From a virus: a DNA stretch of 9,917 nt. Below the pieces are notes generated by a model that saw nothing but the letters and a program-made list of their open reading frames with translations, did not search any database and was not told the DNA's origin. The stretch lies in UHGV virus genome UHGV-0207821; one strand, given 5' to 3'. Below are positions 1-9,917 of this stretch, one piece after another; within the stretch, counting starts at the first letter, position 1, and each line of letters begins with the position of its first letter. A program made the translations under genes and the position numbers.

Positions 1-73
1 TGTGCCCCCATCGCTCTGATAGCCTGGTGTCGTCAGGTCCTTCCTGGAATTATGGCCCGTTACGGGGCGGCGG

Positions 74-616
74 TTACTCGCCTTTGTTCTGTAGCAACTT
101 CTCAGGCGCGCTTCCGGTAGTTTCCATCAGGTAATCAGCCAGTATCTGTGGCAGGTTTTCGTCAAGTCTTGCACATGCGTTACATGCTTTGGCTATTTCC
201 CTTTTTAGTTCATCCAGCATATACGGCCTTATATCGGGAAAGCGCCTTTGCATTGTGAGCGGGAGGCTGTCCATGATTGATGAAATCTGACTCGCTAGTT
301 TTGAAATCGCGTAGATGCAAAACTTTGTATCAATCACCTCGCCGCGTTCGCGCTCGTTTTTAAGTTCCTGCGCTTCCGCCTGGGCCGTCATTAATCTGAT
401 TCTTACGCGTAAAAGTTCATCATCATCAATCTCGCCTTTGTCGTTTGTAAGCTGGTTAATTGCATTGTTAACCCTATTGTCTATCACGCTGGCAACATCA
501 TAAAACGCCTCACGGCCTTTACGTTCAACGGGAGTCACTCCCCACTTGTCGAATGCTGTAGCACTTACCCGGCAGCTTTGCGCCATGGTTTTTTTGTTCA
601 TCAGGTGCGATTTCAT
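74..616 (-). CDS. Terminase small subunit, lambda gpNu1-like (possible packaging-redirecting TerS homolog)
   Basis: Translation aligns along its full length with lambda Nu1 as I recall it (e.g. RLMTAQAEAQELKNERERGEVIDTKFC...MDSLPLTMQRRFPDI vs lambda RLTRAQADAQELKNARDSAEVVETAFC...LDGLPLSVQRRFPEL). Start chosen at ATG 616 because of the upstream GGGGA Shine-Dalgarno; ATG 601 and GTG 628 are alternatives. Sits directly downstream of the cos site, as in lambda. Confidence 0.85.
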   Translation of the reverse strand: MKSHLMNKKTMAQSCRVSATAFDKWGVTPVERKGREAFYDVASVIDNRVNNAINQLTNDKGEIDDDELLRVRIRLMTAQAEAQELKNERERGEVIDTKFCIYAISKLASQISSIMDSLPLTMQRRFPDIRPYMLDELKREIAKACNACARLDENLPQILADYLMETTGSAPEKLLQNKGE

Positions 617-817
617 CAATATCCCCACTTAGTTAAGGTTTCAGGTTGGTGTGTTGGTGTTATCTTTCCCTTTTTATTCATAGAGATAGAGCGAAAAACA
701 AAACCACCACCACCAACCCGAAAAGGCTCATAAATAGCGAAAATCCGCAAGGTCGCCGCCCCGTAGCCTGCCGGATCGCCGGAAAGGACCCGCCAGCCAG
801 AACGGGCCCTAATTTCA
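617..817 (-). other. Lambda-type cos site: cosN 12-mer at 750-761 plus cosB-like repeats
   Basis: Plus-strand AGGTCGCCGCCC at 750-761 is the exact reverse complement of the lambda cohesive end GGGCGGCGACCT. The minus-strand sequence just after it (TGCGGATTTTCGCTATTTATG) closely matches lambda CGCGGGTTTTCGCTATTTATG (R3 region, from memory). AGCGAAAA repeats at 690-697 and 736-743; inverted CACCAAC-rich blocks at 644-660 and 704-719 flank an AT-rich core. Confidence 0.75.
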
Positions 818-1201
818 TCAACCAATCAGCTTATAGCGACCATCCCGTGCATTGCGACGTACACGCTCAATCTTGAGGCATAGCGCCGCATCTGGCTTTT
901 TGGGGACAGGTACGCGGCAATATTCAGAAGCTCGAGGAATATTGTTTATCCAGTCGATCACTTCACTTAAATACCAGGCTTTACGCCCTTCCGTAACCTG
1001 TACGCGTTCGGGGAACTCTCCACGAGCCTCAAGGTTTAGCAATGTGCGACGGCTAAGGGTAGTAAGTTCCATCACCTGATTCATATCAACAAGGCGTTCA
1101 CTTAAACGCATTTTGTCAGCAATAGCCTTTAATTCCTCTACTGCTGGATCCGGATACATCATTTCGGCAATTGGCTTAAGGTCATTGTAATGATTCTGCA
1201 T
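818..1201 (-). CDS. AlpA/MerR-like helix-turn-helix DNA-binding protein, function unknown
   Basis: Central motif MELTTLSRRTLLNLEARGEFPERVQVTEGRKAWYLSEVIDWINN has the AlpA/excisionase-type HTH pattern. ATG at 1201 is preceded by AGGGGGA. Lies between the gpD-like gene and cos. Confidence 0.7.
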   Translation of the reverse strand: MQNHYNDLKPIAEMMYPDPAVEELKAIADKMRLSERLVDMNQVMELTTLSRRTLLNLEARGEFPERVQVTEGRKAWYLSEVIDWINNIPRASEYCRVPVPKKPDAALCLKIERVRRNARDGRYKLIG

Positions 1202-1212
1202 TGTATCCCCCT

Positions 1213-1554
1213 TTACACACGAGCCAGCGGCTGAACAGAAATACCTGAGCCAACAAACGCGGCAACCTTTGCCGACAGTTCTCTTACAGACTCAGGCCAG
1301 TTCAGAGCATCAACATTTAAAACACCTGTCTTATAAACCTGTGCCTGTGTTTTTTTCGCTGTGTCGATTTGTACAGCGGAAACATAAACCGCTTTGCCTG
1401 CGCTCGTTCCATCCCATACCACTAGCGCACCAGTTGCATCTTCCTGCATCAGTGGCGTAAACGCAGGTATTACCCCTTTATTGGCTGAAAATATCCCCAG
1501 CGTAGTAACCAGTGCTTCAGTGCCAGACATGAGTTCAGTGTAATGAGTAGCCAT
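1213..1554 (-). CDS. Head decoration protein, lambda gpD-like
   Basis: 113 aa; conserved blocks shared with lambda gpD from memory (TPLM, VVWDGT, YKTG, WPE, AAFVGSGISV vs TPLM, VAWDGT, YKSG, WPE, TAFAGTAISIV). SD AGGGGGAG precedes ATG 1554. Confidence 0.85.
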   Translation of the reverse strand: MATHYTELMSGTEALVTTLGIFSANKGVIPAFTPLMQEDATGALVVWDGTSAGKAVYVSAVQIDTAKKTQAQVYKTGVLNVDALNWPESVRELSAKVAAFVGSGISVQPLARV

Positions 1555-1563
1555 TGCTCCCCC

Positions 1564-2610
1564 TTAGCCAATGCGAACGGTAACAAAACGATTGATGCGG
1601 GCCGGTATTGGCTGTGGTGCAGAGTGCGTTTGTACGTACTCAATAGCCGGATCACCAGGCACAATATAGTTTTTCGGTGCAAGTTCGGCTTTAGTCAGCC
1701 CCATTCGGGTTAGCTCCGGATCCTGAATACCGCCATAGGCGACAATCCCCTGAAGAGCCGTATTGCCAAGCACCATCAAATCAGGATCAAGGAAATGTTT
1801 TTCAGTTCCGTCCTCGTCGGTATAACGTCCGCTGTAAACAACAATCGCAACATCGCCCATATACCCTTTAAAACTCACCGAATCACCAAGGTCTTTAAGG
1901 GCCGTTTCCAGTTCGGAATTAGAACCACGGCGGGTATCCAGAGCCTCTTTTATCGCTCTGAATGAACGGTATTTCTTCCATACATTACCGCCCATAATGA
2001 TGATATTAGTGACGCCCTCACTAAATTCTGCGTAGCTCTCAATATCATCATTTGGATCAAAAGTTTCTTTATCCTTACCTGACCACTCAGCACCGCCAGA
2101 CTGCGTGATAATATTTTGTGGTTTTATATTCCAGTCCAGTTCATAACGTTCAATACCATCGCCCTCAATGATATTTTTCCCCGTTGTGATTGCCTGAACA
2201 GCAAGCCATTCAATACGTGCACGTATAGCTTTAGCCTGATTTACAATCGCCTGTTTAACTTTAATATTACGCGCCCCAAAAGCATTGTATTGTTCAGGTG
2301 ATACACCAGCAGGGCGCACAGCTAACTTATTTGGATCAATGCTGCTTTTCGGTTTCATATAGCCAGGGCGAATTATTTTTGATTCGTATCCCTCATCTCG
2401 TGAAACTTTACTGCCCACCATAGGAGAGCAAAACGCCGCGATCGGGATATTTGGATCGTCGATCGTATCAAGAATAATGTCTCTCGATTCAAAGATTACC
2501 GAGCGAGTGAAAAACAAACTGGTAAACAACGCATTTAATTTTTTTTGCACATCTTCAGCATTAGCCACCTGCACAAGCTGTGTAGGCGAATATAAATCAA
2601 CCATACTCAT
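1564..2610 (-). CDS. Major capsid protein, lambda gpE-like (HK97 fold)
   Basis: Long collinear similarity to lambda gpE as recalled (MSMVDLYSPTQL vs MSMYTTAQL; DTRRGSNSELETALKDLG and GDVAIVVYSG essentially identical). Start is the ATG at 2610 (MSMV...) preceded by AAAGAGGA, not the ORF-track start at 2691. Confidence 0.9.
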   Translation of the reverse strand: MSMVDLYSPTQLVQVANAEDVQKKLNALFTSLFFTRSVIFESRDIILDTIDDPNIPIAAFCSPMVGSKVSRDEGYESKIIRPGYMKPKSSIDPNKLAVRPAGVSPEQYNAFGARNIKVKQAIVNQAKAIRARIEWLAVQAITTGKNIIEGDGIERYELDWNIKPQNIITQSGGAEWSGKDKETFDPNDDIESYAEFSEGVTNIIIMGGNVWKKYRSFRAIKEALDTRRGSNSELETALKDLGDSVSFKGYMGDVAIVVYSGRYTDEDGTEKHFLDPDLMVLGNTALQGIVAYGGIQDPELTRMGLTKAELAPKNYIVPGDPAIEYVQTHSAPQPIPARINRFVTVRIG

Positions 2611-2777
2611 CCTCTTTACATTCATTACAAATAATTGTGAATATATTCTATTACCGATGTCTGCTATGCGAATACATGCAAACAAGTGCAATGTTGTATA
2701 AAATATGCCGTGACAACTTCAGTGCTGATAATTCGTGTTAATGTATTTACTTCCTTTGGTCGGGATTTATGTAGCAT

Positions 2778-2810
2778 GCCGGAAAATCTATTTTTTTCCG
2801 GCATCTTTTT
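2778..2810 (+). terminator. GC hairpin with T-run in the ssb to capsid intergenic region
   Basis: GCCGGAAAA (2778-2786) pairs with TTTTCCGGC (2794-2802), followed by ATCTTTTTGTTT. The T-run is on the plus strand, so it is a weaker fit as terminator of the minus-strand ssb operon. Confidence 0.3.
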
Positions 2811-2821
2811 GTTTGCAGAAT

Positions 2822-3244
2822 TTAAAACGGTATATTATCGCCGTACGGATCATCATTCCCCGACTGTTGTTTTGCCCTGTTCAGTGCGTCAGTGGCCTGC
2901 CCCTGCTGACCTTTTTTGCCGCCCGGTCGCGCCGTTCGCGCACTGATTACGCTGTCTGCGATAACCTGCCAGCCCCGCCGCGTTTCGCCGTTCTGGCCTG
3001 TCCACTGGCTTACCTGCATGTTACCCGCCACGCTCAGGAGTTCACCCTTGCGGTGCTTTGCCAGTGCTTCGGCCTGTCTGCCAAACGCCAGGACGGATAA
3101 CCACATCGTCGCCGTTCCGTCATCTGCCTGGCTGCACGGAAGTGGGACCGCCATACTCGCCATCGTCATTTGTGTACCCTTGCTGGTGGTCTTTAACTGC
3201 GGGTCAGCCACCAGCCGCCCGTAAGCCGCTATCTGTGCTGTCAT
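2822..3244 (-). CDS. ssb: Single-stranded DNA-binding protein (SSB), short form
   Basis: OB-fold region resembles E. coli SSB (QIAAYGRLVADPQLK vs KVILVGNLGQDPEVR; WLSVLAFGRQAEALA vs WHRVVLFGKLAEVAS). Gly/Gln-rich linker and acidic C-terminal tip DDPYGDNIPF (cf. DFDDDIPF). ATGA start/stop overlap with the upstream gene. Confidence 0.85.
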   Translation of the reverse strand: MTAQIAAYGRLVADPQLKTTSKGTQMTMASMAVPLPCSQADDGTATMWLSVLAFGRQAEALAKHRKGELLSVAGNMQVSQWTGQNGETRRGWQVIADSVISARTARPGGKKGQQGQATDALNRAKQQSGNDDPYGDNIPF

Positions 3245-3492
3245 GCTGTCTGCTCTCCGGTTTTAACGTTGATGGTTGTCACCTGTTCCGCTTCGGCAAT
3301 CTCCCGTTCTGTCAGTGTGGCAAAATTTGCCGCCGCCGTGGTCATGAATGCGCTTATCAGTTCGGGATGCGCTTTCGCGTATCCTTCTCCGGCGTGGCGG
3401 TCTATCGTTCTGATTGCCACCTTTAAGGCGTGCTCTGTCATGTCTAATGCGCGATATTTTGGTGCTGTTTTATCTCTGCTTTTTCTGGTCAT
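3241..3492 (-). CDS. Hypothetical protein
   Basis: ORF-track frame 3241-3522; start taken at internal ATG 3492 (MTRKSRDK...) so that it does not run over the iterons. Stop overlaps the ssb start (ATGA). Confidence 0.45.
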   Translation of the reverse strand: MTRKSRDKTAPKYRALDMTEHALKVAIRTIDRHAGEGYAKAHPELISAFMTTAAANFATLTEREIAEAEQVTTINVKTGEQTA

Positions 3493-3503
3493 TCCCCACC
3501 ACT

Positions 3504-3694
3504 CCCCACTTTTTCGCCTCACTTTTTAAGCTCCCCACATGATTTCCAACCTTGTTTTTTTGTGATTCTAATATGTTGTTTTTCAATGTGTTTTTTATTC
3601 CTCACTTTTGAGCCTATATACAGATTGAAAAGTGAGGGGCGCGGTTGCTTTTTGTTCAGTTCCTGCTATCCCCTCACTTTTGCGCCTCACTTTT
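3504..3694. repeat. Iteron array with AT-rich core, candidate replication origin
   Basis: CCTCACTTTT at 3517-3526, 3600-3609, 3672-3681, 3685-3694; variant CCCCACTTTT at 3504-3513; inverted copy AAAAGTGAGG at 3628-3637 forming a palindrome with the 3600 copy. T-rich stretch 3551-3599. Immediately 3' of the replication helicase gene. Confidence 0.55.
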
Positions 3695-5109
3695 TACAGT
3701 GGGCGCACATCATCACCGTCAATAGCGATAACGCCGTCTCTTTCCAGCTTGTACAGCCAGCGCCGGAAGTTTTTCATCTCATACCCCAGCTTTTTCATAT
3801 CATCGCGCAACAACGGGATAGTGCATTTATCGCCGCGCTGTGTGCGTGACCGGATACAGCCCCATAGTGCGGCGTGATTCTCCGTCTTGTTTCCGGCCTC
3901 CTCGATGCGCTCCAGTTCAACGGGTGGGCGCGGCTTATCCACAACCACCAGCGACGTGATTAACTCCTTGTCAGCGTCGGTAAAAAGCTCCACCACACGT
4001 AAATCATATGCAGCCTCTTTCAGTTCCTCCGCGTCCTTCATTTTGGTGCAGGAGATAACCAGGGCCTCACTGTCCGCGCCTTCGCGGCGGATCCGGTACT
4101 CAGCGTCCAGAGATGCACGAAATGCACTGGAACCACGCGCCCCTTTTGTTTCATCCTTGCCGGAATGGTGAACCACCAGCACCGTGGCCCCTGTGCGTCG
4201 TTTCAGTTCGTCACATCCACGGATAAACGCCCCCATATCCCGCGCGTCATTTTCATCATTACCGCCAAAGCAACGCGCCAGCGTATCCAGAATAATCATG
4301 CGTACCGGTTTACCCGTTTCCCGTTCAACCTGGCGGGATGCGATAACCATTTCATCAACATCAAACTGGGCTGCAGGAAAAATCGGGCGGTTTACCAGGT
4401 ACAGATTTTTCACCCGTTCATCATTAACGATTTCCCATGCCTTGATACGGCGGGGGACACCAATGCCACCTTCACCGACAACATACATCACCGAACCATG
4501 CGCCACCCTGCGACCTCCCCAGTGGCGACCCGTGGCAACATGACACGCCCAGGAACACGCGAGGAACGATTTATAGGAACCGCTCGCGCCGTATGTGCTG
4601 CACAATGAATTAGCCGGAATCACGCCCTTAACGACATAATCAAGCTGTGTGTCGTACCCTGCAGATCCAATGCTCATTGGTAGCGTGGTTTTTCGCTGGC
4701 TGTATTGCTCGTCAGTAAGTATTTCCCCGCGCTCTGCCTGTTCGCGGATCCGTTGCAGGTAGTCGTGCCAGTTCTCCAGCTTCTGACTGTGCATTCCCTC
4801 AGGGTAATAATTCGCATCCCGTACACCTGCCGCCGCCAGCTTTTGCCCGATGGCATTAATATTTGACGGCTTGATGTGGCCTGCCTTGTACAGTCGGACA
4901 CAATAGCGACCATCGTCGATAATTTTCAGGCCTGCCAGTTCGTCAAGCTGGCTGTCTCCCAGCCATACAGGCGGAACATTGTCGCCAGCAAGTCGCCCGT
5001 CCTGCTCCTGCCATTGTTTCGCGTGCGCCCAGGCATCACTACCCGCAAAAATAATGACTTCGGTCATTTTGTCGTAAGGCTGTTTTTTTAAGTTCGGTGC
5101 GCTTTTCAT
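3694..5109 (-). CDS. Replication initiation helicase, RepA/DnaB-like RecA-fold ATPase with C-terminal winged-helix domain
   Basis: 471 aa. Walker A-like YGASGSYKS, Walker B-like RMIILDT, then VLVVHHSGKD, typical of RepA-like (AAA_25) helicases. C-terminal LGYEMKNFRRWLYKLERDGVIAIDGDD looks winged-helix. SD AGGGG before ATG 5109; ATGA overlap with the upstream ORF. Confidence 0.8.
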   Translation of the reverse strand: MKSAPNLKKQPYDKMTEVIIFAGSDAWAHAKQWQEQDGRLAGDNVPPVWLGDSQLDELAGLKIIDDGRYCVRLYKAGHIKPSNINAIGQKLAAAGVRDANYYPEGMHSQKLENWHDYLQRIREQAERGEILTDEQYSQRKTTLPMSIGSAGYDTQLDYVVKGVIPANSLCSTYGASGSYKSFLACSWACHVATGRHWGGRRVAHGSVMYVVGEGGIGVPRRIKAWEIVNDERVKNLYLVNRPIFPAAQFDVDEMVIASRQVERETGKPVRMIILDTLARCFGGNDENDARDMGAFIRGCDELKRRTGATVLVVHHSGKDETKGARGSSAFRASLDAEYRIRREGADSEALVISCTKMKDAEELKEAAYDLRVVELFTDADKELITSLVVVDKPRPPVELERIEEAGNKTENHAALWGCIRSRTQRGDKCTIPLLRDDMKKLGYEMKNFRRWLYKLERDGVIAIDGDDVRPL

Positions 5110-5405
5110 TTCTTGCCCCTGAATCCGTTAATCATGGTTTTCAGCTTCTGGATGTTTGCCCGTGCCCTGGCGTTGCTGGTGGGCACGTTATGCGGCGCGG
5201 TCTGTACCAGAGAAAAATCACACCGGAACTGATAAACAGGCATCACGCAATCATATTCGTAACCTTCACGGCGGTAGATTACGCGCCGTTCTTCCACGCC
5301 CTTAATCATTACCGTGCCGCCGTACTGGTCGCGGTAAATATCACCGCGCGTAAATTTAGGGTGAGTGTTGCCACTGGCAGTTAAGCCAGAATATTTAAGT
5401 TTCAT
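5106..5405 (-). CDS. Hypothetical protein, translationally coupled to the replication helicase
   Basis: 99-aa ORF; SD GGAGAA upstream of ATG 5405; stop overlaps helicase start. No family recognised. Confidence 0.55.
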   Translation of the reverse strand: MKLKYSGLTASGNTHPKFTRGDIYRDQYGGTVMIKGVEERRVIYRREGYEYDCVMPVYQFRCDFSLVQTAPHNVPTSNARARANIQKLKTMINGFRGKK

Positions 5406-5410
5406 TATTT

Positions 5411-5644
5411 TTATTCTCCGGTGTGCTGTTCTTTATATCTGTCGTGCAATAGATCTATTTCTTGCAGTTCCATTATTACAGGCTCAAGAAGCGTTATTAA
5501 TGCCGTGGCAATTCTTGATTTTTGTTTGTCGCGTTCATTGTCGCCAAGTGTTTCAAGCCATATGCGCAATATTTCCAGCATGTTTTCACTGTGAGAAAGT
5601 GCAAGAAATGCGCGGTCTATTGTTTCGTGGTAAATATCACGCAT
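5411..5644 (-). CDS. Hypothetical small protein
   Basis: 77-aa ORF in the same operon, 8-nt start/stop overlap with the upstream ORF. No recognisable motif. Confidence 0.5.
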   Translation of the reverse strand: MRDIYHETIDRAFLALSHSENMLEILRIWLETLGDNERDKQKSRIATALITLLEPVIMELQEIDLLHDRYKEQHTGE

Positions 5645-5870
5645 GGCTTACATCCTCAGGAAATTTTCTTCTGTAACGCGCCTCTGCCACATATTCCGCA
5701 TAATCGGCGGCGATATTCAGTACATCAAATCCCGTTGATTTATATTCTCTCGTGGAAAGTAAGAAAAAAGCCGCTCTAATAAGCTCTGGCATTGACGAAA
5801 GCGCATCAGCCGCATCATCAGGAACGCCGGAAAATTCCTGTTTCAGGGAATTAAAACGATCATCACGCAT
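5637..5870 (-). CDS. Hypothetical protein, downstream half of a possible poly-G frameshift pair
   Basis: 77-aa ORF whose ATG (5868-5870) lies 2 nt from a G9 tract on the coding strand; the upstream ORF ends just after the tract in another frame. Confidence 0.45.
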   Translation of the reverse strand: MRDDRFNSLKQEFSGVPDDAADALSSMPELIRAAFFLLSTREYKSTGFDVLNIAADYAEYVAEARYRRKFPEDVSHA

Positions 5871-6103
5871 AACCCCCCCCCATTTTCACAATCAGCAATC
5901 AGGATGGCTTTGGCCTCATTCAGCGCCATATCCGCACTAAGTTGCATAACCGCCAGCGAATGAGGAACGAAAGCCCCGGCATATTCTGTTTCACTGGTAG
6001 CGTGCTTATGCGCCCTGTCCGCGATAACAGAAATATCAATCGGCGCATCAATCAGTGTTTTGATTGCTTCGGCGGCTGCGTCCGGACGGGTGTTATTGCA
6101 CAT
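5843..6103 (-). CDS. Hypothetical protein, upstream half of a possible poly-G frameshift pair
   Basis: 86-aa ORF; the G9 tract encodes the GGG in ...ADCENGGGLCVMIVLIP near its C-terminus. A 10-G tract would fuse it in frame to the 5637-5870 ORF. Confidence 0.45.
   Translation of the reverse strand: MCNNTRPDAAAEAIKTLIDAPIDISVIADRAHKHATSETEYAGAFVPHSLAVMQLSADMALNEAKAILIADCENGGGLCVMIVLIP
5873..5881 (-). repeat. Homopolymeric G9 tract (C9 on plus strand) at the junction of two ORFs
   Basis: Nine consecutive C on the plus strand at 5873-5881, inside one ORF and directly upstream of the next ORF's ATG. Confidence 0.9.
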
Positions 6104-6461
6104 GGTGCACCTCCTGGCGAATACGGGCGGCGAATACCATCACGCAGCCAGCCGGGGATTGCTGACGTGCTTCCTGTTCGCTGGTGGCCTCGATGTGAAT
6201 CACGCGCGGTTGTGCCGTGCTCAGGGCGATAAAACGCCAGATAAAATTGTTCTCGCATTTCTGAATAAACAGCGTGTTTTCTTCGCGCCCTTTCCATGTT
6301 GCCGAGATATAGCCCATGTCATTGAGCATCTCGCAGGCATCCACCAGCGTATCAGCGGCTACGTGTACAGTGTTTTTACCGTCAGCCATGCAATCACGGT
6401 GCACCGCCAGGAAGGTGTATATAAATTTAGGGTGAGTTTGGGTATGCTGTGTTCCAGCCAT
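6093..6461 (-). CDS. Hypothetical protein, first gene of the leftward operon
   Basis: 122 aa from ATG 6461 (MAGTQHTQTHPKF...), SD GAGGT about 8 nt upstream. Normal amino-acid composition, unlike the junk-like translation further upstream in the same frame. Confidence 0.5.
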   Translation of the reverse strand: MAGTQHTQTHPKFIYTFLAVHRDCMADGKNTVHVAADTLVDACEMLNDMGYISATWKGREENTLFIQKCENNFIWRFIALSTAQPRVIHIEATSEQEARQQSPAGCVMVFAARIRQEVHHVQ

Positions 6462-6669
6462 AATCGTTACCTCATTTAACGGTTTGGTTAGAAGCCCGGT
6501 TAGTGTTCGCGCACTGCCGGGTTTCGTCGTTTTTATGAATCGCTCATTGTGAGATACATAGCGACCCCCATGTGAGATACACATTATATTGTGGTGATAT
6601 ACATTGCAAGTGTTTTTATATCTCACTTTTGTGTATAGTGATATACACATAACAAATTGGTGATTAACT
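6462..6669. promoter_or_regulatory. Divergent regulatory region with operator-like repeats
   Basis: Four same-orientation copies of GTGA(G/T)ATACA at 6549-6558, 6572-6581, 6593-6602, 6639-6648; inverted partial TATCTCAC at 6619-6626; palindrome GTGTATA-GTGA-TATACAC at 6631-6650 just upstream of the RHH gene. Lies between divergent gene starts at 6461 and 6670. Confidence 0.55.
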
Positions 6670-6972
6670 ATGTCTGTATACAAAAATGCAAAATCGCAAA
6701 TGACAACGATCAGGGTTCCCCACGATGTTATGGAGGGCATGGAATCCGTAAAACTGGACGGCGAAAGCAACGCCGGATTCATAGTAACCGCCATGCGCGG
6801 TGAGATCGCTCGCCGGCAGGCAGAAGGAAGAGGAGAAAATCCCTTGGTTTCTTCGCTCGATGCACTGGCGCAGGTGGAAAAAATCGGTGTCAAAGCAGCC
6901 GAGGAGATCGGGCAACTCGTCACCGTCGCGCGTGAAGAACTCCAGCGGCGCAAGGCCAAAGAACCAGAGTAA
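6670..6972 (+). CDS. Ribbon-helix-helix (CopG/Arc-like) transcriptional regulator, candidate element repressor
   Basis: N-terminal MTTIRVPHDVMEGMESVKLDGESNAGFIVTAMRGEIARRQ fits the RHH strand-helix-G-x-S-x-N-helix pattern. SD GGTGA 6 nt before ATG 6670. Charged, helical composition. Confidence 0.6.
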   Translation: MSVYKNAKSQMTTIRVPHDVMEGMESVKLDGESNAGFIVTAMRGEIARRQAEGRGENPLVSSLDALAQVEKIGVKAAEEIGQLVTVAREELQRRKAKEPE

Positions 6973-7029
6973 TCACCATCAGCGCCGTGGTGTAAGGTAT
7001 TACGGCGCATTGCTATGCAGGACAACACA

Positions 7030-7203
7030 ATGACCGATAAAGAATTGACCAAAACATTATCACCGGCACGGAAAAGACGGCGCAGAAAGATAGAGCATGA
7101 ATCAGAAAGATTCGCGCCATGTGCTTTTGCTCTTGAGAAATTCCTTAAAGAGCACAGGAAAAAGCTCTCGTTGCAAACCTTGGAACGAACCAAATCTGAC
7201 TGA
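7030..7203 (+). CDS. Small basic protein, hypothetical
   Basis: 57 aa from ATG 7030 (SD AGGA 7 nt upstream); very basic (RKRRRRK). Co-oriented with the RHH gene and followed by a terminator. ATG 7015 is an alternative start. Confidence 0.4.
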   Translation: MTDKELTKTLSPARKRRRRKIEHESERFAPCAFALEKFLKEHRKKLSLQTLERTKSD

Positions 7204-7676
7204 TCACATTGCCCACCAGCCGCAAATGTGGCATTGTTGGTGATGCTCATGCGTTGGGGATAACGTGTAGCTTGTGTCGAGGGGCCACCGTAGCGGGTGG
7301 CCTTTGTTTTGCCTGTTATCCGGCAATTGTGGCGCTTCGCCACACGGTTGATATAATCCCACTGCTCAGATTCATTTTTTGCGCAGTAGGTTAATTGTTC
7401 ACAAAGGCGCTCCGGCAACGGGGCGCTTTTTGTTTTTATTAGTTTGTAGAAACCTGACTCAGAGATAATGCTCATATTCTGATTGCCGTCAGGGGGGTAA
7501 GTTAAATTTACTCCCTTTTCATCAAGCATCTGCAACGCTCTGGCGTTAATAATATTGGTTTCACTCCCGCCAATAAGGCCGGAAATAACCGGAATAATTT
7601 CAGCGAAATTTTGCAGATTCTGGTTTTCAGGCCGAACGAAGCCCCGCCCCTGTACAGGCGTATATCCAGTATTCAT
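7204..7676 (-). CDS. Possible Bro-N/antirepressor-like protein; 3' end undefined because the frame has no stop until 6093
   Basis: N-terminal ~125 aa from ATG 7676 look protein-like; NMSIISESGFYKLIKTKSAP resembles the Bro-N/antirepressor signature (weak, from memory). Beyond about 7300 the translation turns Cys/Ser-rich and runs antisense through the RHH operon and the operator region. The 7204 end is arbitrary. Confidence 0.3.
7283..7310 (+). terminator. Rho-independent terminator of the plus-strand regulator operon
   Basis: GGCCACC (7283-7289), loop GTAGCG, GGTGGCC (7296-7302), then TTTGTTTT (7303-7310). Confidence 0.55.
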
Positions 7677-7728
7677 GGTTAAATCTCTGTATTAGTGGAT
7701 GGGTGGCGGCTGTGTGCCGCCAGCCTGA

Positions 7729-7917
7729 TTAGTGAACTGCCTCGCGGCTGTCCTTCCATGCCAGAACTTCGGATAAAGACCAGCCAACGGAACGACCACC
7801 GAGTTTACGCCGTGATGGGAATTGTCCAGTCTTCTCCAGGCGATACCGACATGAGCGGCTCAGGCCTGTAAGTTGCTGACATTCTTTTTCACGTATAAAG
7901 CGATCTGTGCTTAACAC
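7729..7917 (-). CDS. alpA: AlpA-family (excisionase/Vis-like) transcriptional regulator
   Basis: LSTDRFIREKECQQLTGLSRSCRYRLEKTGQFPSRRKLGGRSVGWSLSEVLAWKD is a classic AlpA HTH. Start proposed at GTG 7917, preceded by AAAGGGGGA. The ORF-track ATG at 8025 would add a low-complexity T/N/P-rich extension. Confidence 0.7.
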   Translation of the reverse strand: MLSTDRFIREKECQQLTGLSRSCRYRLEKTGQFPSRRKLGGRSVGWSLSEVLAWKDSREAVH

Positions 7918-8285
7918 AATTCCCCCTTTGTTGTTTCTTAAAGAGTCATTGGGTGGATTATTGGGTTGGGTTGTGTCGGATTGTGTCAGGGTGTTTATGG
8001 AATGGCAAACACTGGTGGCGGTCATTTTACAGAAGTGGGGGTAGTGAGAATAAAAATCCTTTTAATTCATTATGATGTAAAGGCATAAAATTCTGTTTTT
8101 ACGCCTTTTTTACATGTTTTTAAGAGTGATTCGCCAATGTACAAAAAGCCAGTAAAACGACTGAAAATCAACTTTTTAGGGTGTCAGTCAGATGATAATC
8201 AAGTTTGTTCCAGATTGTTCGCCGTTGTTCGTCGTGGTGTCTCGTTGTTTCACGTTGTGTCCGTTCTAAAAAATCGCAAAAAAAA

Positions 8286-9533
8286 TTATATTTCTCTGGC
8301 TATTGGCAGTGTGGTTACGTTTTCGTGAGTGCCTGCCAGTATCTCTAACCGCTCTGTCCACATGTCCAGCGCATTACGTTTCGCATCGAGATAACGGGAG
8401 TGGTTATAGACTCGCTGCATCCCTGGCATCTGGTGAGCGGTGAGTTGTTCGACAATATGCGGATCCACGCCTAAATCGTTCAGCATCGTGGTAAACGTGC
8501 GCCGTATATCGTGTAGTGACCAGTGCGGATGGTTTAATTTTTTGTGCATGAATCTGCCGTATTGCGACACACTGGCTTCCTGTTTCAGTTCCCCGAGTAA
8601 TAGCCCTGTGTGTCTGTTCTGCTCCACCAGCTGCGTGACGAACGGTAAAATGCTTTCCGGTATTGGCCTGAATATGGCGACCTTCGTTTTGCTGTGCTCT
8701 TTCGGTACTGTCCAGAGCATTTCCTTAAAATCCCACTCCCTGATCTCCGATAATCTCAGTTCTCCGGTTCGGCAGCCGAACACAATCAGGAGGCGGATTA
8801 GTGCGCTGTAGTAGGGCGGGAATATTTTTTTATCCAGCGCCTGTAATAATTCGCCAAGTTCTTTGTTGCTCAGCACGCGTTCGCTTATGCCTGGTTTTTT
8901 GCCAACGTCCACCACGTTAAGATCATCCAGAACGTTACTGACTGCGTAGCGACGTTTACGGCAGAACTTAAGCGCCTGTTTACACGCCTGCATCATGTGA
9001 CCAGACGTTACAGGGGATTTTTTGCGTATCCGGTCAAAACAGGCCAGCCAGTGACGTAACTCGCATTTATCCAGTGGCATATTGCCAATATGCTGTATGA
9101 CGTGATTATTCAGGCGGCTTTTCAGGCATACGTAATCGACACGGTTTTCCTTTACGTGCATTTCCAGCCAGTAGCTGATCGCATCACCCACCGTTACCGG
9201 CTTTAGTGCTTCCTGTATGGAGTAATTAAGCTCATGGCGTGGATTTTTTCCTTCTGCCAGCCATGCGCGACACTGTGCCGCTTTTTCCCTGGCTGCTTTC
9301 AGGCTCAGATCAGGATAATTTCCCAGCTTCAGGCGTTCCGGTGATACCTGGCGTCCAGCTCCTGCTCTGTAGGTGAAATACCAGGTTAACAAGCCGCTGG
9401 TGGAATGCCTGACGCTCAGGTTTCCACCGTCATTAAGAAATGTGGTTTTTGGGGCTGGTGTGCCGTTGATTTTTCTTAGCTGTGTATCGCTCAGTTTGTT
9501 AAGTGCTCTGCTCATAATTTTGAATCCGGTCAT
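8286..9533 (-). CDS. int: Tyrosine site-specific integrase, P4-family type
   Basis: N-terminal LSDTQLRKI...DGGNLSVRHS...LLTWYFTYR typical of P4-family integrases; C-terminal catalytic region with HDIRRTF and VYNHSRY (tyrosine nucleophile). ATG at 9533; the ORF track starts at GTG 9536, and ATG 9515 is also possible. Confidence 0.9.
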   Translation of the reverse strand: MTGFKIMSRALNKLSDTQLRKINGTPAPKTTFLNDGGNLSVRHSTSGLLTWYFTYRAGAGRQVSPERLKLGNYPDLSLKAAREKAAQCRAWLAEGKNPRHELNYSIQEALKPVTVGDAISYWLEMHVKENRVDYVCLKSRLNNHVIQHIGNMPLDKCELRHWLACFDRIRKKSPVTSGHMMQACKQALKFCRKRRYAVSNVLDDLNVVDVGKKPGISERVLSNKELGELLQALDKKIFPPYYSALIRLLIVFGCRTGELRLSEIREWDFKEMLWTVPKEHSKTKVAIFRPIPESILPFVTQLVEQNRHTGLLLGELKQEASVSQYGRFMHKKLNHPHWSLHDIRRTFTTMLNDLGVDPHIVEQLTAHQMPGMQRVYNHSRYLDAKRNALDMWTERLEILAGTHENVTTLPIAREI

Positions 9534-9538
9534 CACAA

Positions 9539-9562
9539 TTAACTACACCATTAACTACACCG
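9539..9562. repeat. Perfect 12-bp tandem repeat (x2) abutting the integrase start
   Basis: TTAACTACACC(A) at 9539-9550 and TTAACTACACC(G) at 9551-9562. Confidence 0.8.
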
Positions 9563-9586
9563 ATCATTGCACAAGGGGGTACAACG

Positions 9587-9606: not shown

Positions 9607-9720
9607 AAAATTGCAATGAGCTTAAAAATCAAAAACATAATGAACAACGTGGCACATTATGAAACAGCAAAAAACACTAATTTATAAAATCACGATATTA
9701 ATAATGTAACTTATATTTTC

Positions 9721-9779: not shown

Positions 9780-9873
9780 ACCGGCGCAGAGGAGACAATG
9801 CCGGATTTAAGACGCGGATGCACTGCTGTGTGTACTGTAGAGTCTGGCGGATGTCGACAGACTCTATTTTTTT
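9780..9873 (+). ncRNA. mcaS: About 94-nt sRNA with four GGA motifs, McaS(IsrA)-like
   Basis: Promoter-to-terminator unit with no ORF. 5' stem-loop CCGGC...GCCGG; GGA motifs in single-stranded or loop contexts (GAGGAGA, CCGGATT, GCGGATG twice); terminal hairpin plus U7. Sequence matches my recollection of E. coli McaS, a CsrA-binding sRNA; not verifiable here. Confidence 0.55.
9838..9873 (+). terminator. Rho-independent terminator of the sRNA
   Basis: TAGAGTCTG (9838-9846) pairs with CAGACTCTA (9858-9866); 11-nt loop containing GGA; followed by TTTTTTT (9867-9873). Confidence 0.7.
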
Positions 9874-9917
9874 ATGCAGTTTTAACTTTGCAGATAGCCG
9901 CATTCTCGCCGGAATTG

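Follow-up and report, generated by a model that had tools for sequence, protein, structure and literature searches.

The 9,917-nucleotide stretch examined here (UHGV virus genome UHGV-0207821; "the window" below means this whole stretch) is very probably about 9.7 kb of a ~10.46-kb Gram-negative phage-inducible chromosomal island (PICI) of the EcCICFT073 family, inserted in Escherichia coli and following a life cycle that depends on a lambdoid helper phage. An initial interpretation made from the letters alone (the sequence-only reading) had recognized a phage satellite in preference to a degraded lambdoid prophage, had been unable to place its combination of genes in a well-described family, and had proposed extending the contig leftward. 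The satellite assignment held, the element being bounded by att sites and ending beside smrA. The window shared 98.7% identity with a segment of the E. coli TW10590 chromosome (L001), in which about 0.92 kb more of the element, comprising one 93-amino acid (aa) open reading frame (ORF), lay to the left of the window and was followed by attR and smrA. No lambdoid late region was found in this leftward flank, and the idea that the window is part of an ordinary prophage therefore fails. Matches of the capsid and decoration proteins, the att site and the gene order to published PICIs identified the unplaced layout as the standard layout of an established family, the EcCICFT073-type Gram-negative PICIs (PMC6092414, PMC6739421). 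The novelty implied at first is not borne out, and the element is one of the lambda-parasitising PICIs common in E. coli.

Profile searches recovered every gene that had been named from the letters alone, namely a P4-family integrase, AlpA, a RepA-like helicase, SSB, gpE-like and gpD-like capsid genes and a Nu1-like small terminase (TerS). The integrase gene and alpA were co-oriented on the minus strand, with alpA after int. The features at the core of the assignment were the following (window positions; E, E value):

8286..9536, minus strand: tyrosine integrase with P4-type arm-binding and catalytic domains (Pfam Arm-DNA-bind_3, Phage_int_M and Phage_integrase)
7729..8025, minus strand: AlpA regulator (Pfam Phage_AlpA, E 9e-18; a 62-aa form is given by PGAP at 7730-7918)
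3694..5109, minus strand: RepA-family (AAA_25) replicative helicase/initiator (Pfam AAA_25, E 3e-44; "helicase RepA family protein" in PGAP)
3504..3696, no strand: putative replication origin, from a repeat search
2822..3244, minus strand: SSB (Pfam SSB, E 1e-15), at a position matching the EcCICFT073 SSB
1564..2604, minus strand: major capsid protein, gpE-like, 346 aa (Pfam Phage_cap_E, E 9e-41, full profile covered)
1213..1554, minus strand: head decoration protein, gpD-like, 113 aa (Pfam HDPD, E 5e-15)
74..616, minus strand: small terminase TerS of the Nu1 family, 180 aa (Pfam Phage_Nu1, E 9e-24; PHROG 57, E 6e-53; alternative GTG start at 628)

SatelliteFinder describes the PICI core as integrase, an AlpA/MerR/Stl regulator, primase-replicase, capsid and TerS (de Sousa et al. 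2023). Of its Type A components, integrase, AlpA, capsid and TerS were present, and no forbidden gene was found with Pfam. Traits of the EcCICFT073 type were likewise found: an initiator of its own with the origin 3' of it, of RepA type instead of Pri-Rep; capsid, decoration and TerS as the only structural or packaging genes, with no lysis gene; and helper-type cosQ and cosN next to a satellite-specific cosB. The type also includes Rpp, for which there was no match, a Nu1-type TerS filling its slot; the presence of Rpp marks a sub-type within the PICI family and not the family itself. As had been noted from the letters alone for the window, portal, protease, scaffold, large terminase (TerL), tail and lysis genes were absent, both there and in the remaining 0.9 kb of the element as seen in L001, and no TerL, portal, prohead protease, head-tail adaptor or connector was found in the window, searched with Pfam and PHROGs, or in the rest of the element. 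The size of ~10.46 kb between att cores falls within the ~8-15 kb range of PICIs, and insertion was at a specific chromosomal site.

The iterons that had been seen next to the helicase gene were also recovered: CCTCACTTTT, in both orientations, is repeated at least 7 times at 3504-3696, and this array adjoins the 3' end of the gene. PICI origins have been defined at this position, 3' of the initiator gene (PMC6092414). A gene of the same RepA type was found in the PICI of E. coli O157:H7 TW14359 (the O157 PICI below). The description of this part as a P4-type replication backbone did not stand, as it consists of a RepA/AAA_25 helicase with iterons and not of a P4 alpha primase-helicase.

The right end of the element and its host flank were defined by three features:

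9690..9707, no strand: attL core TCACGATATTAATAATGT, right end of the element, placed by comparison with the K-12 empty site and the same as the published EcCIEC2733.1 core
9538..9563, no strand: 26-bp tandem repeat AATTAACTACACCATTAACTACACCG, an exact direct repeat with its second copy near the other element end, beyond the window
9780..9875, plus strand: McaS/IsrA small RNA gene (Rfam, 118 bits, E 3e-22), in the host flank outside the element

Alignment of the junctions with the K-12 empty site placed the crossover in TCACGATATT(A/T)ATAAT, which corresponds to 9690-9707 of the window, in the abgR/mcaS–smrA intergenic att of E. coli; the right flank in TW10590 holds mcaS and abgR. The span of 74 to 9562 given from the letters alone therefore falls short on both sides, at the att core on the right and by ~0.92 kb beyond the window on the left. 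A tRNA scan of the window found no tRNA gene, which rules one out as the att site. The 26-bp repeat was considered as the att core and ruled out, as the K-12 comparison puts both copies inside the element, at 7162 (7162-7187) and 17371 of L001, just within its two ends; it is likely an arm-type integrase binding site. The same 26 bp have been published as the "att core" of another PICI, EcCIDI14 (CGGTGTAGTTAATGGTGTAGTTAATT, within an IS110 transposase gene), and because of this identity some published PICI att cores may be internal arm-type sites common to related integrases. On the host side, the att core lies ~73-90 bp upstream of the mcaS 5' end. PICI integration swaps out all sequence above about -73 of the CRP-regulated mcaS promoter region, which could alter its regulation.

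The packaging signals lay on either side of terS:

750..794, minus strand: cosN and cosQ-like block (cos1), with the 12-nt cohesive end GGGCGGCGACCT at 750-761 and the cosQ-like part at ~771-794
629..749, minus strand: cosB-equivalent region, conserved with the TerS-type O157 PICI and divergent from Rpp-type EcCICFT073, lambda and N15
1..74, plus strand: second cos (cos2), inverted relative to cos1 and cut mid-cosN, aligned with the full-length cos2 copies in EcCICFT073 and the O157 PICI

In this element terS occupies the Rpp slot of EcCICFT073. Its product showed no similarity to RppA by BLASTP, and a comparison with PDB sequences gave no RppC match, only a chance ankyrin match. Full-length identity was 35% to the TerS of the CFT073 prophage, 41% to lambda Nu1 and 46-48% to N15 gp1, with the likeness to phage TerS stronger in the C-terminal half; in lambda TerS this half binds TerL (PMC9026076). 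The protein was 85% identical to the O157 PICI TerS, with a ratio of nonsynonymous to synonymous substitution rates (dN/dS) of 0.16 between the two, indicating purifying selection. E. coli and Shigella had abundant homologues at 80-98% identity, followed by a tier at 55-57% in Enterobacter and Citrobacter. Among complete E. coli genomes, the TerS module had matches in 969 of 5,426, and in 264 these spanned at least 80% of its length.

The lambda-type cos proposed from the letters alone was verified: GGGCGGCGACCT at 750-761 (minus strand) matches the lambda cohesive end exactly, and cosQ and cosN, with conserved flanks, align with those of lambda, the CFT073 lambdoid prophage, EcCICFT073 and phage YDC107_1. 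A 79-bp megablast match was also found upstream of Nu1 in two lambdoid phages. Within the cosB region, a run of GGTGGTGGTGG covers bp 47-59 counted from the first base of the cohesive end, which is the R3 position in lambda and N15 (Murialdo and Feiss review), and the two arms of an inverted repeat (639-651 and 711-723) lie on either side of an A+T-rich spacer. Matches to Rfam "mir-3910" on both strands at 638-724 were rejected as an artefact of this repeat. Matches in other genomes split at the cosN/cosB boundary, some covering only HTH–cosQ–cosN (HTH, helix-turn-helix gene) and others only cosN–cosB–terS; cosB and terS thus pass on together, which is what a cognate pair would do. From these alignments, conserved cosN and cosQ appear to be a recombination joint between packaging cassettes. 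The same integrase and att backbone carries RppC elsewhere and here a full Nu1-type TerS with co-inherited cosB, suggesting that Rpp-type and TerS-type cassettes exchange at conserved cosQ and cosN.

The second cos was recognized from the motif ACGGGGCGGCG, present twice in inverted orientation. What is left comprises the cosQ-like block and, of cosN, the left half (GTTACGGGGCGGCG), which a deletion of ~190 bp has joined directly to the terS stop codon. In EcCICFT073 and the O157 PICI both cos sites are intact and flank rpp or terS, the second being inverted and downstream. The window thus holds a natural single-cos variant, which bears on why these PICIs have two inverted cos sites.

On the strength of characterised relatives, we propose the following life cycle. 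Lambda, phi80 and a resident lambdoid prophage each induce EcCICFT073 and transfer it by way of cos and the helper terminase (PMC6092414, PMC6739421); its Rpp forms a heterodimer with helper TerS, which is thereby redirected to the PICI cosB (PMC6739421). For the present element, a lambdoid helper would turn on alpA, and AlpA in turn would cause the island to excise and the long leftward operon to be expressed (icd-like gene, small ORFs, DUF4222, RepA helicase, SSB, capsid, decoration, HTH and terS). The RepA-family helicase would then copy the circle into concatemers from the iteron origin just downstream of its own gene. The satellite Nu1-type TerS may bind the satellite-specific cosB through its N-terminal winged HTH and bring in the helper large terminase through its conserved C-terminal half, after which helper TerL would cut the lambda-identical cosN and package satellite DNA into heads and tails built by the helper. 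These last steps would amount to redirection by an "own TerS" in the style of Staphylococcus aureus pathogenicity islands (SaPIs), in place of the Rpp–TerS heterodimer on which EcCICFT073 and, at the window's own att site, EcCIEC2733.1 rely. Four unit lengths (~41.8 kb) would fit lambda packaging limits, in agreement with the phage-sized DNA of EcCICFT073.

Several points weigh against this placement and life cycle. Comparison with PDB sequences gave no sequence-level match of TerS to lambda Nu1, and the closest phage TerS, N15 gp1, is only 48% identical, too distant to point to a cognate TerL partner. If both cos sites are normally needed, the cut-down cos2 could affect packaging. No experimental study of a TerS-type E. 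coli PICI was found in the searchable literature, and for the window's element its induction, the kind of helper and the contacts of TerS with TerL and with cosB are inferred.

Genes for a gpE-like and a gpD-like protein are a conserved feature of EcCICFT073-type PICIs. EcCICFT073 carries a "putative capsid protein", c1499, and a "head decoration protein", c1500 (PMC6092414), to which the window's capsid and decoration proteins were each 54% identical. Identity to lambda and N15 proteins was 32-42%, the best phage match of the capsid protein being lambda E (41.8%) and the decoration protein reaching 32% to lambda D. Both genes were intact and lay in E-then-D order, the reverse of lambda, and purifying selection at unsaturated divergence was found between the CFT073 and O157 PICI genes (dN/dS 0.13 for capsid and 0.15 for decoration). 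Such selection between PICI lineages on two full-length genes, their descent in lineages distinct from any phage, and the conservation of the pair across PICIs, of which 21 among 29 Gram-negative reference elements carry a capsid gene (Williams and colleagues, PMC10111431), would all suit a partial capsid-forming satellite. Such a "semi-capsid-forming" PICI would use its own gpE and gpD with the portal, protease and scaffold of the helper to make its own shells, possibly smaller and of a smaller T-number, and fill them by means of its own TerS and helper TerL. Were this true, the element would be an evolutionary intermediate between classical PICIs and capsid-forming PICIs (cf-PICIs). We consider it improbable. 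Deletion of c1499 or c1500 left transfer and interference unchanged in EcCICFT073, all DNA packaged in that system was phage-sized (PMC6092414), and the window's element has no portal, protease, scaffold or connector gene. The window's allele is only 54% identical to the c1499/c1500 pair that was tested, and if the satellite did build its own shells the negative deletions would reflect the Rpp-type element, the other capsid allele or the helpers tried; a satellite-specific role in shell-building for this divergent allele is nevertheless unlikely.

Two further origins would make the window something other than an EcCICFT073-type PICI. Capsid, decoration and TerS proteins and a cos of lambda-type families are what a degraded lambdoid prophage retaining E, D, Nu1 and cos would leave behind, yet an intact integrase and att sites 10.46 kb apart, intact ORFs throughout under purifying selection, the E-then-D order, proteins only 32-48% identical to their phage homologues and a compact architecture that recurs at several att sites all speak against it. 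The left flank, with no late region, effectively refutes a remnant, which we regard as very improbable. Still less credible is a P4-like satellite with a P2-type helper: the P4-type domain architecture of the integrase, AlpA and the Icd-like gene would be shared with such an element, but Pfam, PHROGs and NCBIfam gave no Psu, Delta, Sid, Ash/epsilon or alpha primase-helicase, and the cos is lambda-type, not P2/P4-type.

The remaining features of the EcCICFT073-type PICI in the window comprised a divergent regulatory region and a set of small genes:

6093..6299, minus strand: Icd-like (cell-division inhibitor-like) gene, first of the leftward operon (NCBIfam NF033153, E 5e-20)
6300..6669, no strand: divergent regulatory region with operator-like TGTGAGATACA-type repeats and a SymR-like RNA candidate
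6456..6535, plus strand: the SymR-like structured RNA candidate (Rfam symR, 35.7 bits, below the gathering score of 61)
6670..7203, plus strand: rightward operon of a YlcI/YnfO-family gene (6670-6972) and a conserved 57-aa basic ORF (7030-7203)
7280..7305 and 7403..7430, plus strand: two strong terminator-like hairpins 3' of the rightward operon
818..1201, minus strand: AlpA-like HTH protein, the second in the element, 127 aa (Pfam Phage_AlpA, E 1e-8; PHROG 2790; PDB 8c3t AlpA, E 2e-10)
3241..3522, minus strand: small conserved ORF of PHROG 1231 (PHROGs), syntenic with CFT073 and the O157 PICI
5106..5405, minus strand: DUF4222 protein (Pfam, PHROGs), syntenic with EcCICFT073
5411..5644, 5637..5870 and 5843..6103, minus strand: three small conserved ORFs (Pfam, PHROGs), syntenic with EcCICFT073

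The regulatory region held four TGTGAGATACA-type repeats at 6548-6647. The gene at 6670-6972 (plus strand), which the sequence-only reading had labelled a ribbon-helix-helix regulator, encodes a YlcI/YnfO-family protein (NCBIfam NF041551, E 5e-20), and the basic ORF at 7030-7203 (plus strand) was 84% identical to a CFT073 ORF. About 0.5 kb separating the rightward operon from alpA (7204-7728) lacked a convincing ORF; its counterpart in the O157 PICI is annotated as an Icd-like pseudogene. A 527-aa ORF at 6093-7676 (minus strand) was rejected as spurious, as it crosses the divergent regulatory region and the YlcI operon on the opposite strand and its Pfam match was sub-threshold. Part of this region is a swapped cassette: TW10590 has an unrelated 267 bp in place of 6243-6679 (437 bp), with 99.6% identity to the window on one side and 96.8% on the other. 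The window's cassette was full-length at 92-100% identity in at least 15 of the genomes listed, among them EC23-1020, where it sits in a different, PICI-like island at tRNA-Thr; 43 genomes matched at least 80% of it.

The symR match had an E of 8e-4 on the whole window and 2e-5 locally. The candidate forms two hairpins followed by a U-rich tail (fold z-score -5.5). With respect to the Icd-like gene in its long (122-aa) frame, it runs antisense over the Shine-Dalgarno sequence and the ATG. SymR acts on symE by the same antisense arrangement. The regulatory modules that TW10590 and CFT073 have instead do not contain the candidate.

The second HTH gene (818-1201) lies between the decoration gene and cos, in the slot of a 137-aa c1501-like ORF in EcCICFT073, with which its 127-aa product gave no BLASTP alignment. 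It was considered as Rpp and set aside at the sequence level, as the PDB sequence search matched an AlpA structure and not RppC.

The result is mainly a correct classification of an element free of cargo and defence genes (its small ORFs gave no match in a PADLOC scan). Of specialist interest are the conserved capsid and decoration pair, the exchange of TerS for Rpp and the truncated cos2.

Compared with known systems, the element closely resembles EcCICFT073, the model among Gram-negative cos PICIs, with which it agrees gene for gene in order from int to the last 93-aa ORF, in AlpA, the divergent YlcI/Icd region, DUF4222, SSB and the gpE/gpD pair (at 54%), in lambda-identical cosN and cosQ and the layout with a second, inverted cos, and in its size of ~10-11 kb. 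EcCICFT073 differs in its att site (ycfD–phoQ), in having a Pri-Rep primase where the window has a RepA helicase, in RppA and another cosB in place of Nu1-type TerS, in a 137-aa ORF in the slot of the AlpA-like HTH, in carrying perC, which the window's element lacks, and in an intact cos2 where that of the window is truncated. The backbone is that of EcCIEC2733.1, listed in Table S1 of PMC6092414 as a 10.5-kb element at lysR[abgR]–smrA with core ACATTATTAATATCGTGA; the 18-mer core is identical to that of the window, and chromosomal site and 10.5-kb size are the same. By its published description, on which this comparison relies, EcCIEC2733.1 encodes RppC (PMC6739421 supplement), whereas the window encodes TerS.

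The O157:H7 TW14359/EC4115 element, counted as a PICI in Table S2 of Fillol-Salom 2018, shares with the window the int–alpA–RepA–SSB–capsid–decoration–TerS layout, a TerS at 85% identity and a conserved cosB, and in the TW14359 PICI the RepA and TerS substitutions occur together. It differs in its att site (roxA–phoQ) and integrase, in having the c1499/c1500 allele of capsid and decoration (54% identical to that of the window), in a c1501-like ORF where the window has the HTH gene, and in an intact cos2 and perC. As judged from these sequence comparisons, the window's element is a mosaic in which the att site and integrase of EcCIEC2733.1 form the backbone and the RepA and TerS modules are those known from PICIs of O157. 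Farther afield, pac-type SaPIs (SaPI1, SaPIbov1) similarly combine a satellite TerS and satellite-specific DNA recognition with the helper large terminase, but are Gram-positive, use headful (pac) packaging and not cos, have an unrelated TerS family and encode the Stl repressor, Ppi and CpmAB. The suggestion that the element might be capsid-forming PICI-like was not upheld: cf-PICIs of the EcCIEDL933 type share the integrase–AlpA–replication left half and capsid and TerS genes, but also encode TerL, portal, protease and head-tail connectors and make complete heads, whereas the window's element has none of these genes.

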